DNA from: Haliotis rufescens
Lineage: Eukaryota
Assembly: GCF_023055435.1 (NCBI RefSeq)
Contig: NW_025963835.1
Span: 2,418,001-2,482,000, forward strand
Direction: 5' to 3'
DNA: 64,000 nucleotides
Shown here: one piece after another, positions 1 to 48,690 of the stretch
Layout of the letters: every line of letters begins with the position of its first letter
How positions within the stretch are numbered: the stretch's first letter is position 1
The notes under the pieces: model-generated
Databases searched by the model: none
What the model was told of the DNA's origin: nothing
The model's input: only the letters and a program-made list of their open reading frames with translations
Made by a program: the position numbers and the translations under genes

Positions 1-3000
1 AGTCTGAACATGCTGTAATGGCTATACTAAGACTTATCAACAAGTATCGAGGTATGACGTTATATTTCTTATTTACTTGGTTTACAGTCAAACAACCAGG
101 AATGCAGGAAAAAAATCTAGTGGTGAATGAATTAATTAAAGCCCAGTCTGATAATCAAGCTAATAAATAGGGAATATCGCAAGTTGTTTACCTGACTGAC
201 TGCGACAAGTTCAATGACCCGTTATTGTTTGCTCAAATATTCACAGATTCACGGTTACTTCAATTTGTAAAAATATTAACAATTCTGTAACATTTCACCA
301 CAGTGCCATGCGAAAAATAGTGACTTTGAAATTTGTTTTTATTTCGCATCCTAGTGACCTTATACTTGCTTACAAATCCGAAATATATTAGCTAGTTTTA
401 TTTTGAATTTATTTTTATCCCTATTTCGACCACCGGCCAATGGTTTTAAGAAACAGAAATCCGTAAACCATCTTATAAATAGATAAGTGTTATGGTTTGT
501 TTTTGATTTTGAAGACAAAAATCATTATACTTTGATTCCCAAATAATTAATTTGGTTCTCGAAAATTGAATAATGCAACTTCTGTGATCGTTACGGCATA
601 GGGGAGATAACTCTAATTCCCCTGGGGCCTCTGACCAACATCGCCCTTGCGTTGCGCCTGGATCCAGACCTTGGACAGAAACTAAAGGAGGTGTTTATCA
701 TGGGAGGTAATATTGAAGGTAAGGGACCCAGCATTGGATTTTCGGTATATATTTTTTTGCATTTTGTTGTATTTAAATTTATCTATTAATTGATTTTTTT
801 ATTTTATTTGAGTTTTTTTAAAGGGGGGGGGGGGGGGGGGTGTTTACCATCACACACACGCACACACACAATCTTTCACACACATATTACACACACACAC
901 ACTCTCACACACATATCACACACACACATATCACTCACACACACACTCTCACACACATATCACACACACACTCTCTGACACACATTTCACACACATACAC
1001 ACACTCTCTCTCAAACACTCACTCACATATCACTTACACACTCTCTCACAATCATATGTCACACACACTCTCTCACAAACACATCACACACACACATATC
1101 ACACACACACTCTCTCTCTCACACACACATACACCCACTCTCTCTCACACACATATCACACACACACTCTCACACACATATCACAAACACACACTCTCTC
1201 TCAAACACATATCACACACACTCTCTCACACNNNNNNNNNNNNNNNNNNNNNNNNNNNNNNNNNNNNNNNNNNNNNNNNNNNNNNNNNNNNNNNNNNNNN
1301 NNNNNNNNNNNNNNNNNNNNNNNNNNNNNNNNNNNNNNNNNNNNNNNNNNNNNNNNNNNNNNNNNNNNNNNNNNNNNNNNNNNNNNNNNNNNNNNNNNNN
1401 NNNNNNNNNNNNNNNNNNNNNNNNNNNNNNNNNNNNNNNNNNNNNNNNNNNNNNNNNNNNNNNNNNNACACATATCACAAACACACTCTCTNNNNNNNNN
1501 NNNNNNNNNNNNNNNNNNNNNNNNNNNNNNNNNNNNNNNNNNNNNNNNNNNNNNNNNNNNNNNNNNNNNNNNNNNNNNNNNNNNNNNNNNNNNNNNNNNN
1601 NNNNNNNNNNNNNNNNNNNNNNNNNNNNNNNNNNNNTGTAAGTTAAACGTGTGTGTATCGAAGGATTTAGAGAAAAAGGTAACTTCTCTGACAAAGACTC
1701 TATTATTTTACCAGTATTGATATACATGTATGTACCTGCAATTTCTGACTATATGGTGCGAAACCCAAGTAACTGGCCACAATTTAATTATAAGAATATA
1801 ATCACACTATTTATACGAACTGCTTTGTGTGATTTGTTTCCAGGTAAGGGAAGGCTGAGCACCTCAGCTGAGCACAACTTCTACTGTGACTGTGAGGCAG
1901 CCTTTATTTCACTGAGAGAGCTGAAGAATATAGCTATCCTCCCGTATGAGGTTTGCCTCGATACAAACATCCCCTGGGTAGGTCCTAGGTGTGTAGGATT
2001 AAAGTCCGATAGGTAACCAGGTCAACATGCCCATCGCCCAACGCCCAAAGCCCAACTCATTGGCTCTGGAATTACCACAGCCGTCTGTGTCTGTGTGTGT
2101 GTGTTTGTTTACTGCCGGTGTTATAGTGCTAACTAACTTGGATACCATGCCCTATACTTAATTCTGACACAATACACTGACTCCGAGCTGACCAGTCCTG
2201 TGTCCCCTTAATGCTGAGCGCCAGGCAGGGTAACAACCAGTACCATCTTGCTGGCAGACTAAGGATCACGATCTTCACGTTTCTGGGGTCTAACCTATGA
2301 CCAGCGGGTCCTGTAGGGCTATTGAACGCAACTCGGTTCAGCTAGATGATATTTACCTTTACTATGCCTCAGTGTCTTCATCCATACAGAGATCCAGGAA
2401 GACTGCCAAGTCCCACAATACCATTGTTGTAGATCTCACAGAGACAGATAGGTGAACAATTAGGTACTTCCGAACTGCTTTGTTTTCTTTCAGCTCGTGG
2501 AAACGTCACGGTTTCGTCGGAGTTCAACTTTTATATCGACCCTGAAGCCGCATACATCTGCCTGAGTTCGCTTAAGGCCCCACTGTCTATTATTCCGTGG
2601 GAGGTTTGTCTGGATACACAGAGACAGATACCATGGGTATGGATATGAACTACCTTAATGAATGCTGACGGAGGTTTGCATGCTACTGAGGCGTTGCGTC
2701 GTAAAGCTGACTCAGCACTTTCTCCACAAAGTCACGCGTAATCTCGTGTTCTAAGCCACCGATATACGGATTTTTTCTCCTCGAGTTGCCAGGATCTGCT
2801 GAATGTGGATTATGATCCTCGGTCTGTTATTTGCATTCAGAGCAACCTTCGCTAGCTCGAGACTGTTAGATTTAGGTAGTCAATTCAAGTGATGGGAGTC
2901 GAGTAGTATAGGGAATGGGGGTTCTGGACCACTGCCACCAAGACCCGATTCATACCCTCAAACACTGCTACCACAGAGGTCATTTCCCCCACAGTAACGT

Positions 3001-3836
3001 GTTAGGGTATGAATCTGGTCTAGGCGGCGGTGGTCCAGAACCCCCATTCCCTATACTACTAGTAGTCGTCATAGCCTAGTAGCATTTGAGAGTTATAATT
3101 CTAAGTGCTTTTGAGTTTCTACAAATTGAAAATAAATAGATGGTAAGCATGTTTGTCTCGTTCAAGCAGAAATAGTTACAAACTCTAAGGACTGGTGAAG
3201 TAATGTTCCCATAAGTCTTCTCAGCTACTTTTTAGAACGGAATTCCCAAGGCTGACACAGGTTCCCTTTGTTAGAGTCGACGAATGAGGCTTGAGATGTT
3301 AAGGTGTTACCTGATTAATTGTGTCATGCCCTGGATATTTGCTCATGCTATCTACCAATGATAATGCAGATATCTTGGAATATACGAACTCTTGTAAACG
3401 TCTGAGAGAATCAAATCGTCGTGGTCAAATCATAAAGATATTTTAACTCTCATAAAATCTGCACGTAAAGTACAAACCGTATTCAATTTATTTTCGCACA
3501 TATTTGTAGGCTGTCTACGACAAATGGATCGGCCTAGGCACCCCGAGAGCTAACTTCTTCAAGAAAATCACCGAACATTGGATTGAGAAAGTCAAGAGCA
3601 GACGACAACCAGGTTTCCAGTCATGTGATCTCTTTGCCATGACAACAGTGCTGGACAGGGAAAGCATATTGGACAAGGAGGCTGTTCATGCAACTGTGGA
3701 GCTACACGGACACCTGACCCGAGGTCAAATGGTCGTTGACTGGAAGGATAGAATGGGCAATGAGCCAAATGTGACGATAATTAAGAAAATCTGTGTTGAG
3801 AAGGTGAAGCAGTTTGTACTGGACATGCTTCAATGA
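1..3836 (+). CDS. Inosine-uridine preferring nucleoside hydrolase family gene, 5'-partial. Exons <1-51, 602-718, [1844-1977 OR 2494-2636], 3510-3836
   Basis: Spliced translation SEHAVMAILRLINKYR/GEITLIPLGPLTNIALALRLDPDLGQKLKEVFIMGGNIE/ARGNVTVSSEFNFYIDPEAA...IPW/AVYDKW...SCDLFAM...VELHGHLTRGQMVVDW...stop. It contains the family motifs EHA, GPLTNIA, IMGG, GN..EFN..DPEAA and TRGQ.VVD. All introns are GT-AG with matching phases. Confidence 0.93.
851..1491. repeat. Compound (CA)/(CT)-rich microsatellite with assembly gaps
   Basis: Degenerate cacacacatat/ctctcacac repeats interrupted by N runs. Confidence 0.95.
1844..1977 (+). CDS. Nucleoside hydrolase alternative exon A (divergent active-site exon)
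   Basis: tttccag|GTAAGG...CCCTGG|gtaggt. Encodes GKGRLSTSAEHNFYCDCEAAFISLRELKNIAILPYEVCLDTNIPW. Phase 1 in, phase 0 out, no stops. Confidence 0.8.
2494..2636 (+). CDS. Nucleoside hydrolase alternative exon B (canonical active-site exon)
   Basis: tctttcag|CTCGT...CCATGG|gtatgg. Encodes ARGNVTVSSEFNFYIDPEAAYICLSSLKAPLSIIPWEVCLDTQRQIPW. Same phases as exon A. Confidence 0.88.
2902..3060. mobile_element. Short palindromic MITE-like inverted repeat
   Basis: Arms of about 60 bp: agtagtatagggaatgggggttctggacca... and ...tggtccagaacccccattccctatactact, with a spacer of about 35 bp. Confidence 0.8.
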
Positions 3837-16300: not shown

Positions 16301-17875
16301 CAACGACGTCGTTGTACACCAGCACCCACCTATGCTAATGGACACTGCCTACTTTGACAACACAGGGATCACTCAAGCGAAGCTTAGCGCAGAGGGAATA
16401 ACACAAATCGGGTTCAATGTGAGTCACACGCAGCTTTTTATGACGTCTAAACACTTTGATAGTCGGTTATAATACGATTTCTTTGTCTGGAAACAGTAGA
16501 CACTATACAATAGTCACAATATGTACAATACTCGGTGTTATATAAAGCTGAACATTCACCAATCAGACTCAAAATAGACAACCATTCGTATAACAATATC
16601 TTCAGTCAAATCAAGTCAAATAAGATTACAATATTTGTAACTCAAATAGTAAGATTCAGTTTTATAAAAAAAAGGTGCTTTTGGAGTTAGGTGTGTGTTT
16701 TATATGTCGATGAATCTTAAGCGTGGGTCAATTACTGGCACAATATCATACTTACTTTACCTCTGTATTTTCATGCCAATGAAGTATTCTTTACATAACT
16801 AATGATTTCCATTTGTAGATAACATGTGAGGTTCGAGCTATGTACGGTGTCAGTATGCCTCCAGGTCCCACAGCTAGTTCCGATCCTTTTTATGTCGGAT
16901 TTGAGGTAAGATGACATAGTTCTTTTCGTATCTTATCCCATCTTATTTCATTGCAGAGAGTTTTACGTTTCATAACACCCTGTATTGGTATTTCAAATCA
17001 TTCCAATTTCGGGATATCAACACTATCATTAGAAATCTAATGACACCATGATGATTCAGAGGTATAGTTTAAGGTAGTATTACTTTTACTAATCTGGTCA
17101 GTTTCATGTGTTGTTAATGTATATACGCTGCTACGTTTGTCTTCCGCCTTGCTGTTGCTGGAATGTTGCTAAAAGCTGCGTAAGACCCCACTTACTGCTT
17201 TTATTTAATCAGTGCTAAAAGCTGAGGTAATAGAGGCCTAAACCTACATTCCTACTTAATGAACTAATAACGTCGAACCACCAGAGAATAACTAGAAATA
17301 TCTGCCGAAACAGAGTGAGTGAGTTAAAATGTAACTGATATCTAGGTTGTAAAAGGTAAAATAGTAATACACATTTTATGAATGCAGACTGAATATCAGT
17401 GATGACGCCACGTGGTTACATATTTTAAAACATTCGTTTTACACAGATCCTAACCAAAGAAATAACGATCAAGCAAGGTGAGACGGGACAGGTTCGAGTG
17501 CGAGCCACGGCGCCTTTCCGTTGCGGAAACCTGTCCGAGACGTTTTCATCTTTTTGTTCCATGCCAATAGAGATACCAACTGCTGACTCAACAAAAGGGT
17601 TTTCCCAGGAAGATTGCGCCATTTCCATACCTTATACACAGTGGAACCAACCTGTATCTGTTACTGTACATGGAACTATAACACCAGAATATGGCAGAGG
17701 ACGACTGGATTCTCTACTAGTTCTGAGGACCCCTGCAGCAAGCCTGCTATTTCCCTATTGGGCCAACCATACTATTGGAACAGTAAAGGTAAGATAGTTT
17801 TAGACACCAACCACAAAGAGTCGTAATCGTTAGATTACACTTTCAACATCTTCAGTTGAATCTATTATATAAATA

Positions 17876-45704: not shown

Positions 45705-48690
45705 CTTTATCCTACAGAGGTATATATCACTTACTAACTCGAGCAATAAACGTTATTGTTCTGTGTTAAATTAGAGACTGTGTAAGTATGCTGAGAACGA
45801 TAACTTTTTATCTGACGAATAAGGAAAGGAAAGGTCGACAGTGGAACACATTTCATCTTTAACATCTATAGTGGAATCGAGGAAATCGCTCAAGAAATCA
45901 ACTTATTTAACCTATATTGACTTCAAAGGGCTTGATATACTATTGAAGGGCTATTCTTTGAAAGAAGTTATGAAACCTTGAGATATGTGGACGGATGTAT
46001 GAGGCTATTATATATTCATATACGAGTGTTAAATGTTGTGAGGGGATTTTACTCAGTTGTTCGATGTGAGATGGGATCTGACGCAAGGATGCTTACTTTC
46101 CCCTTTGTTGTTCAACATATACATAAACGATCTCATTACTACATTAAATGTATTGAATACAGGTGAGAGGATCGACGGTACATAAACGATCTCATTACTA
46201 CATTAAATAGATTGGATATAGGTGAGAGGATCGACGGTACATAAACGATCTCATTACTACATTAAATGGATTGGATATAGGTGAGAGGATCGATGGTACA
46301 TAAACGATCTCATTACTACATTAAATGGATTGGATATAGGCGAGAGGATCGACGATACATGAACGATCTCATAACTACATTAAATGGATTGTATATAGGT
46401 GAGAGGATCGATGGTACATAAACGATCTCATAACTACATAAAATGGATTGTATATAGGTGAGAGGATCGACGGTACATAAACGATCTCATTACTACATTA
46501 AATGGAATGGATATAGGTGACAGGATCGACGATACATGAACGATCTCATTACTACATTAAATGGATTGGATATAGGTGACAGGATCGACGGTACATGAAC
46601 GATCTCATAACTACATAAAATGGATTGGATACAGGTGAGAGGATCGACGGTACATAAACGATCTCATTACTGAATTTAATGGATTGGATACAGGTAAGAG
46701 GATCGACGGTACATAAACGCTCTCATTACTACATTAAATGGATTGGATATAGGTGATAGGATCGACGGTACATAAACGATCTCATTACTACATTAAATGG
46801 ATTGGATATAGGTGAGAGGATCGGCGGTACATAAACGATCTCATTACTACATTAAATGGATTGGATATAGGTGAGAGGATCGACGGTACATAAACGATAT
46901 CATTGCTACATTAAATGGATTCATTTTGTATATATGTGGAAGGATTGACGGTACATAAACGATCTCATTACTACATTAAATGGATTGGATACAGGTGAGA
47001 GGATCGACGGTACATAAACGATCTCATTACTACATTAAATAGATTGGATATGGGTGAGAGGATCGACGGTACATAAACGATCTCATTACTACATTAAATG
47101 GATTAGATACAGGTGAGAGGATCGACGGTACATAAACGATCTCACTACTACATTAAATGGATTGGATAAAGGTGGAGAGGATCGACGGTACATAAACGAT
47201 CTCATTACTACATTAAATGGATTCATTTTGTATATATGTGAAAGATTGACGGTGCATAAACGATCTCATTACTACATTAAATGGATTGGATACAGTTCAG
47301 AGGATCGACCGTACATAAACGATCTCATTACTACATTAAATGGATTGGATATAGGTGAGAAGATCGATGGTACATAATCGATCTCATTACTACATTAAAT
47401 GGATTGGATACAGATGAGAGGATCGACGGTACATAAACGATTTCATTACTACATTTAATGGATTAGATATAGGTGAGAAGATCGATGGTACATAAACGAT
47501 CTCATTACTACATTAAATGGATTGGAAATAGGTGAGAGGATCGACGGTACATGAACGATCTCATTACTACATTAAATAGATTGGATATAGGTGAGAGGAT
47601 CGACGGTACATAAACGATCTCATTACTACATTAAATGGATTGGATATAGGTGAGAGGATCGACGGTACATGAACGATCTCATTACTACATTAAATGGATT
47701 GGAAATAGGTGAGAGGATCGACGGTACATGAACGATCTCATTACTACATTAAATAGATTGGATATAGGTGAGAGGATCGACAGTACATGAACGATCTCAT
47801 AACTACATTAAATGGATTGGATATAGGTGAGAGGATCGATGGTACATAAACGATCTCATTACTACATTAAATAGATTGGATATAGGTGAGAGGATCGACG
47901 GGACATGAACGATCTCATTACTACATTAAATAGATTGGATATAGGTGAGAGGATCGACGATACATGAACGATCTCATTACTATATTAAATGGATTTGAAA
48001 TAGGTGAGAGGATCGACGGTACATGAACGATCTCATTACTACATTAAATAGATTGGATATAGGCGAGAGGATCGACGGTACATAAACGCTCTCATTACTA
48101 CATTAAATAGATTGGATATAGGTGAGAGGATCGACGGTACATGAACGATCTCATTACTACATTAAACAGATTGGATATAGGTGAGAGGATCGACGGTACA
48201 TGAACGATCTCATTACTACATTAAATAGATTGGATATAGGTGAGAGGATCGACGGTACATGAACGATCTCATTACTACATTAAATAGATTGGAAATAGGT
48301 GAGAGGATCGACGGTACATGAACGATCTCATTACTACATTAAATAGATTGGATATAGGTGAGAGGATCGACGGTGAGACCCTCTGTGTATTGGCCTATGC
48401 AGACGACTTAGTACTGCCAGCGGAAAATGAAGCGGACCTAAATGCGCTCTTAGAATGGCTATCACTTCAAAGTCAACAAACAATTCTTCACTGTAGACGT
48501 ATGGCAACACCAAGAACAAACTGTGTTTTAAAATGTGAAAATATACCTCTTGAGATTGCTGACAGTTACGCTATAAACCTCCCTGAAGTGTTTCATGCTT
48601 CCAACGGACTCGGTATTAAAAATTATTTATCTACTGTACAGAACGTCATTTTCAAGAAATATAAAGAAGATTTAACGAGACAATAATGTG
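45705..48690 (+). mobile_element. Degenerate LINE reverse transcriptase remnant interrupted by a tandem array
   Basis: QGCLLSPLLFNIYINDL before the array and NDLITTLNRLDIGERIDGETLCVLAYADDLVLPAENEADL after it. Confidence 0.88.
46121..48374 (+). repeat. Tandem array of 38 units of 59 bp: acataaacgatctcattactacattaaatggattggatataggtgagaggatcgacggt
   Basis: Units start at 46121, 46180 and so on. 38x59 plus 12 nt from three longer variants equals 2254 bp. Confidence 0.97.

Follow-up and report, generated by a model that had tools for sequence, protein, structure and literature searches.

The donor of exon E3 in an abalone (Haliotis rufescens) nucleoside hydrolase gene recurs exactly at the start of exon A, the first of two homologous exons that follow E3. 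AG/GTAAGGGA stands at 717-726 and again at 1842-1851 (a slash marks the splice boundary), so that splicing of E3 to A rebuilds a working donor. By its sequence, exon A is a putative recursive-splicing exon (RS-exon). With confidence slightly above even, we nevertheless favor an ordinary choice between exons A and B coupled to nonsense-mediated decay, in which the donor-like start is a likely by-product of Gly-Lys-Gly codons. The window referred to below is the whole 64,000-nt stretch of DNA that was analysed.

Gene structure and predicted products

Judged by its profile match, the gene encodes an inosine-uridine preferring nucleoside hydrolase (IUNH, PF01156). The exon-A isoform scores 284 bits and the exon-B isoform 306, and both exceed the curated cut-off of 34.2. 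RefSeq names an isoform X1 (311 aa, exon B) and an isoform X2 (308 aa, exon A) for H. rufescens, and the A/B isoform pair is already known from annotation. The full exon-A isoform is named in RefSeq for both H. rufescens gene copies and for H. cracherodii, in which the A and B forms are both present and the exon A peptide is identical to that of H. rufescens. A word-index search, which is weak evidence, found exon A protein in these two close Haliotis species and in no H. rubra or H. asinina entry. Exons and splicing signals are located in Table 1.

Table 1. Exons, introns and splicing signals of the gene, in window coordinates
Feature	Position	Strand	Remarks
Constitutive exon E3	602..718	+	Ends in phase 1 (…GGNIE + G); joints in contigs, RefSeq-named proteins P0001/P0015
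E3 donor AAG/GTAAGGGA	716..726	+	U1 duplex -10.0 kcal/mol
13-mer CGAACTGCTTTGT upstream of the A acceptor	1816..1828	+	Identical copy at 2471-2483 upstream of B
Overlapping acceptor/donor CAG/GTAAGGGA, putative recursive 5' splice site	1841..1851	+	Codes Gly-Lys-Gly
Mutually exclusive exon A	1844..1977	+	134 nt, phase 1 to 0; isoform X2, 308 aa
Exon A own donor TGG/GTAGGTCC	1975..1985	+	U1 duplex -10.0 kcal/mol
A-B intron	1978..2493	+	516 nt; 1,110 nt in the tandem copy
Mutually exclusive exon B	2494..2636	+	143 nt, phase 1 to 0; isoform X1, 311 aa
Last coding exon E5, to the stop codon	3510..3836	+	B-to-E5 joint in runs X1, X3 and X8

The E3-A intron is 1,125 nt long. Exons A and B are adjacent and homologous (tblastn E about 1e-11 to 1e-13 between them), have equal phases and, when their 44 and 47 codons are aligned, agree at 25 residues. 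Different codons are used at 13 of these 25 shared residues, and 6 of 11 four-fold sites differ. By these comparisons, the two mutually exclusive exons are an old tandem duplication.

The reading frames distinguish the possible products. A alone and B alone are predicted to give the two named isoforms of 308 and 311 aa, respectively. Inclusion of both would give 223 aa, with the stop codon located 71 nt before the final junction, so nonsense-mediated decay is predicted for this form. With neither exon, the predicted product has 169 aa and its stop falls in the last exon, so that the form would escape decay. When exon A is followed by a retained A-B intron, an in-frame stop at 2014-2016 leads to a predicted product of 212 aa. 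A frameshift combined with nonsense-mediated decay is a known basis of mutual exclusion (PMC6071210).

Exon A carries Arg and His at the positions of Asn160 and Phe167 of the solved Leishmania IUNH 1ezr, and exon B keeps both residues, i.e., the GN..EFN family motif, in the same comparison. We take Asn160 and Phe167 of IUNHs to line the ribose site. A literature search on the terms Asn160/Glu166/Asn168 found no paper. Mytilus proteins likewise do without the Asn. Variants in exon A are synonymous in five of seven cases against 22% expected (P=0.007), which suggests that the full A isoform is translated somewhere, and exon A looks constrained as a protein. The last exon (3510-3836) has S-C-D where the Leishmania enzyme has V-H-D and the C. 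elegans-type 5mj7 has Y-C-D; a cysteine-type subgroup exists among nucleoside hydrolases. Exon B of H. cracherodii (P0014/P0016) opens with Gly-Arg-Gly, compared with Ala-Arg-Gly in H. rufescens, and it may therefore start G-N there, possibly GT.

The duplicated donor at the start of exon A

E3 ends in AATATTGAAG at 718 and the intron then opens with GTAAGGGACC. The acceptor of exon A is TTTCCAG at 1843, and the exon opens with GTAAGGGAAG. The two donor copies match over two bases on the left (AG) and eight on the right, which makes a 10-nt direct repeat. This 10-mer, AGGTAAGGGA, occurs in the window at positions 717 and 1842 only, with no copy on the minus strand. The initial annotation had proposed that the E3 donor is copied exactly at the exon A start and that E3-to-A splicing regenerates a functional donor. 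Both statements hold, the E3-A junction being identical to the E3 donor through +8, which is the reconstituted usable 5' splice site that characterizes RS-exons. No change is listed at the exon A start in the tandem gene copy or in runs X3, X13, and X15 (all >90% identical), and the DNA-like run X15 (>90% identical) has no listed change at either donor copy.

U1 duplex energies, computed with the 5' end of this genome's U1, provide a rough measure of donor strength. The donor rebuilt after E3-to-A splicing reaches -10.0 kcal/mol, equal to exon A's own donor (-10.0), and the exon B donor is weaker than the rebuilt one at -5.9 kcal/mol. The rebuilt donors of four paralogs (-2.6, -6.2, -6.9, and -7.0 kcal/mol) are all weaker than the -10.0 of exon A. 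Across the unspliced A acceptor, CAG/GTAAGG pairs at -11.5 kcal/mol, above every donor of the gene. The U1 snRNA itself has at least 42 identically scoring matches, which form a tandem array at G000:C46:11179277-11242436, many of them 592 nt apart.

Contribution of coding constraint and chance

The Gly-Lys-Gly encoded at the start of exon A lies inside the [G/A][K/R]G consensus of the family. Among 13 outgroup proteins, several of which are close kin, positions one and two hold [G/A][K/R] in 11, with Lys in 8 and Gly-Lys in 2; the third residue, Gly, is invariant in all 19 rows (again with several close kin). All four single-exon paralogs in the genome have the intron at the same position and an exon start with GT after AG (GTCTTG, GTATAG, GTGAAG, and GTGAAG), so AG/GT needs no exon B. 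A recent intron gain via AG/GT duplication was considered and rejected, as the intron position is common to the four divergent paralogs.

Local codon usage was then counted: AAG makes up 39 of 74 Lys codons, and GGT accounts for 17 of 84 Gly codons overall and for 6 of the 10 exon starts with a split Gly in IUNH paralogs. Given Gly-Lys, these local counts yield a GTAAG start with a probability of about 0.11-0.32, so nothing is unusual about a donor-like start in this protein. Gly-Lys-Gly codons at an old AG/GT intron position thus appear to determine most of the exon A start.

Of 42 other AGGTAAG sites in 295 kb, repeated and non-splice sites included, one is followed by GGA, and the position-wise estimate is 1.2%. 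G at +6 and GA at +7/+8 are unpaired with this genome's U1 in the duplex; no splicing function therefore requires those bases, and the identity from +6 to +8 (about 1%) is treated as a coincidence picked after the fact. The full 8-nt identity is rare, with a rough estimate of 1e-3 to 1e-4 per junction under an assumed donor frequency, but the case was chosen post hoc from a very large scan. In human, 3.6% of exons reconstitute a donor, 93.8% of these exons being constitutive, and in Drosophila the proportion is about half as high (PMC6224609).

Splice joints in RNA-like contigs

Contigs of 6 of 16 candidate RNA runs and of 1 of 5 unlabelled runs (X15) were aligned to the tandem gene copy, L021. 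No run is on record as RNA, and the runs were judged RNA-like by their GT..AG joints; X15 covers introns like DNA, and three miRNA raw-read libraries were left out. The contigs are graph paths rather than molecules and drop rare variants, and depths were not used for ranking forms. They are not assignable to one gene copy, as 18 of 39 checked variants match the window allele (40 variants were listed, with 155 more).

The E3-to-A joint is present in four of the six RNA-like runs, with 117 letters on the short side in X1 and 26-28 in X3, X8, and X13, and the E3-to-B joint in five of six, in line with the earlier proposal of A and B as alternatives following E3. B is joined to E5 in three of the four runs covering the site (X1, X3, and X8). 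E3 is joined directly to E5 in one of four (X4; 27 letters on the short side); on the tandem copy this joint is L021 2484>5431 (window 718>3510), and the contig omits both A and B. E3-B-E5 is seen in contigs, and A-to-E5 is taken from the RefSeq isoform X2 names; no A-to-E5 joint is among the 15 joints listed out of 37, which is not read as absence because contigs drop rare variants. Template switching over the 10-nt repeat, which might imitate an E3-to-A joint, was judged unlikely in view of the canonical ends and the pyrimidine-rich acceptor that precedes them.

An 800-nt contig of run X3 contains the E3-to-A joint (28 letters on the E3 side) and then continues unbroken for about 600 nt into the A-B intron. 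The upstream intron may go first, as the initial annotation had also supposed. Further X3 contigs lead from the A-B intron into B and join B to E5. These contigs suggest an RNA with the structure E3-A-(intron)-B-E5, provided that they derive from single molecules, as we infer; they fit plain intron retention as well as a part-spliced intermediate of recursive splicing. The X1 contig with the E3-to-A joint extends 19 aligned letters beyond A's donor, and the X13 contig ends at A's donor with 2 letters unplaced. No loose end at A's donor was found in runs X3, X13, and X14, in contigs that drop rare variants. The B-E5 intron (window 2637-3509; L021 4551-5432) is also covered by contigs of runs X1 and X4, which may mean that splicing is slow across the alternative region as a whole.

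Ordinary exon choice as the favored explanation

Because the exon A start is largely explained by the protein code, exon choice likely proceeds by ordinary splicing, through exon definition. The observed anatomy, joints, and reading frames can be connected as follows. After E3-to-A splicing, an exon junction complex (EJC) would mask the rebuilt donor, and exon A's own donor would then have to bypass B to reach E5. If B had already been joined to E5, the RNA would stall before removal of the A-B intron, a state suggested by the X3 contig. Alternatively, A would be spliced to B, and the stop 71 nt before the last junction would presumably lead to decay. E3-A RNA would then form a pool that is held up at the next intron, and re-splicing from 1844 would be a minor salvage route at most.

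The EJC is reported to suppress regenerated donors in mammals (PMC6224609) and flies (PMC8184009), although in Drosophila cells the former study saw no influence of the EJC on exons of this kind. Regenerated fly sites in short introns are called evolutionarily fortuitous, and canonical fly recursive sites lie in introns with a mean of about 50 kb, compared with about 1 kb here (PMC8184009). Inclusion is also seen for some exons whose rebuilt donor is the stronger one (PMC8605326).

Several observations speak against ordinary choice. By construction, the rebuilt donor equals a working donor. The X3 contig, and briefly that of X1, suggests an upstream-first order that has been linked to recursive splicing; such an order was found at EJC-sensitive RS-exons (PMC6224609). 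In addition, the X4 contig skips both exons, and the identity from +6 to +8 is left as chance.

Four mechanisms are listed for mutually exclusive exons in PMC6071210: steric, U2/U12, nonsense-mediated decay, and RNA structure. Steric exclusion of A and B was rejected, the A-B intron being 516 nt long. With donors GTAGGT and GTATGG set against the U12 consensus, U12 incompatibility is unlikely. The folding of RNA from 1780-2060 is unremarkable (z -0.39), and none of six inverted-repeat pairs in 1640-3520 is convincing except a hairpin with 62-nt arms at 2902-3060 in the B-E5 intron.

In the other 65 pairs of acceptors examined, matches reach 9 nt at most, shorter than the 13-mer upstream of both exons. 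The 13-mer is broken by two changes in the tandem copy and is likely a relic of the duplicated branch-point region. A docking/selector role was rejected, as the best partner (-14.5 kcal/mol) lies inside the last coding exon and 11 of 60 shuffles are as good. The partner search skipped masked parts of the window intron, and the intron of the tandem copy gave no better partner.

Possible recursive splicing and other alternative explanations

A tentative alternative, which we consider rather doubtful, is that exon A is an expressed recursive-splicing exon. E3 would be spliced to 1844 first, and the rebuilt donor would compete with the donor at 1977. Re-splicing to B (or E5) would supply a material part of isoform B and rescue RNAs having both the E3-to-A and B-to-E5 joints; for an E3-A-(intron)-B-E5 RNA, splicing from the rebuilt donor to B would be the only in-frame exit. 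The identity of the rebuilt donor with that of E3 fits this explanation, as does its U1 pairing, which equals that of A's donor and exceeds that of the paralogs' rebuilt sites. So do E3-to-A joints in four of six runs, an X3 contig that enters the A-B intron while B-to-E5 is spliced in the same run, and the X4 contig skipping A and B. Precedents are the Ubx microexons and fly expressed RS-exons, which were validated by donor mutation (PMC8605326), and physiological recursive splicing of human alternative exons (PMC6224609). However, a re-spliced mRNA is the same as a directly spliced E3-B mRNA, and contigs cannot reveal lariats. A blocked donor accounts for the observed retained-intron RNA at least as readily as an active donor does, the exon start is largely explained by codons, the introns are short, and the contigs are graph paths aligned on the tandem copy.

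That re-splicing would go further and enforce mutual exclusion is unlikely in our estimate. Exon A would then serve as a stepping stone, and the rebuilt donor would excise A in frame if B were committed to E5. The spliceosome would in this way repair double inclusion, and the strength of the exon junction complex would set the ratio of A and B enzymes.

It is improbable that entry into exon A is mainly unproductive and sets the enzyme level in most tissues, with the full A isoform made in some tissue only. E3-A RNA would keep the next intron (212 aa) or be spliced to B and would be degraded, leaving less enzyme. The X3 contig that is unbroken through A's donor, the X13 contig that stops there, and the computed premature stops are consistent with such a role. 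Exon A is also off-motif at Asn160/Phe167 and has the lower PF01156 score (284 vs. 306 bits), but Mytilus proteins lack the Asn as well, exon A variants are mostly synonymous (5/7), and RefSeq has the full A isoform in both H. rufescens copies and in H. cracherodii.

Very improbable is an action before splicing, in which U1 on CAG/GTAAGG blocks the A acceptor, or 1844 is joined to B first and 718 then to the rebuilt acceptor, as at a dual-specificity or intrasplicing site: the unspliced site pairs best with U1 in the gene (-11.5 kcal/mol) and dual-specificity sites are noted between adjacent mutually exclusive exons in PMC10156609, but no RNA-like contig joins the intron upstream of A to B (contigs drop rare forms) and E3-to-A splicing evidently proceeds.

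If ordinary choice applies, exon A is of little consequence, adding one donor-like exon start, as in 2-4% of animal exons, within an annotated isoform pair. Were re-splicing real, the gene would provide a small test system of 3 kb, from neither fly nor mammal, in which recursive splicing chooses between duplicated exons and swaps active-site residues of an enzyme. If re-splicing enforces exclusion, it would add a mechanism, in a mollusc, to the four listed in PMC6071210.

Comparison with known systems

The expressed RS-exons of Drosophila include Ubx mI/mII and those of smooth, msi, heph, and pasilla (Hatton 1998 as cited in PMC8605326 and PMC3245913). As in these, the first bases of coding exon A rebuild a strong donor able to compete with its own. 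The Drosophila exons are cassette exons, and those of Ubx lie in a 73-kb intron, have ultraconserved wobble positions and undergo re-splicing that was shown by mutation. In contrast, exon A is one of a duplicated either-or pair, its introns measure 0.5-1.1 kb, and its re-splicing is putative. A canonical intronic ratchet point was rejected as a description, since the introns are 1,125 and 516 nt long and exon A is coding and annotated.

Exon A resembles the EJC-repressed putative RS-exons of PMC6224609 and PMC8184009 in that a donor is reconstituted at the exon-exon junction, and the contigs suggest an upstream-first order. Those exons are mostly constitutive, whereas exon A is alternative. 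With FGFR2 IIIb/IIIc (cited in PMC6071210), the abalone gene shares homologous adjacent exons, equal phases, and a premature stop after double inclusion. It differs from this type in that its skip-both stop lies in the last exon and its first exon bears the donor-like start.

The 13-mer common to the upstream regions of both abalone exons is reminiscent of the docking/selector clusters of Dscam and 14-3-3zeta (PMC6071210). Unlike in those genes, the 13-mer has no significant complementary partner and is broken in the tandem copy. Both abalone isoforms are above the Pfam cut-off and match solved IUNHs, like nucleoside hydrolases of this family; exon A differs in altering two GN..EFN positions, and the four other paralog loci examined have one exon at this place. 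Among the titles and abstract openings returned by literature searches with little coverage of subscription papers, neither re-splicing as a selector between tandem-duplicated exons nor this abalone gene was found. The closest mention is that of dual-specificity sites located between adjacent mutually exclusive exons (PMC10156609). RS-exon lists in supplements might include mutually exclusive exons, which would bear on novelty.

Tandem copy, paralogs and other features of the window

The tandem gene copy (L021, G000:C57:2366760-2371260) lies 50 kb upstream and has the same two exons and the same 10-nt repeat. Its exons are 98-99% and its introns 91-96% identical to those of the window gene, and its A-B intron contains an extra segment of 586 nt that is also present in other runs. 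L021 is either a recent duplication or an uncollapsed haplotype.

The acceptors of the homologous exon are unusual at two other loci, with GAG after an ATT repeat in L023 (G000:C57 near 11139400) and AAG in L026 (G000:C594 near 6637300). L023 is divergent and may be decaying.

From about 13800 to 62300 on the + strand, the window contains repeated exon blocks with near-identical donors at 16904/34115/58985, 17787/59869, and 20112/37198/62220. One exon of these blocks has a weak VWD match below the cut-off (E 0.034), and the blocks probably represent a VWD-containing gene present in several tandem copies. Near 46100-48400 lies an approximately 59-nt tandem repeat.
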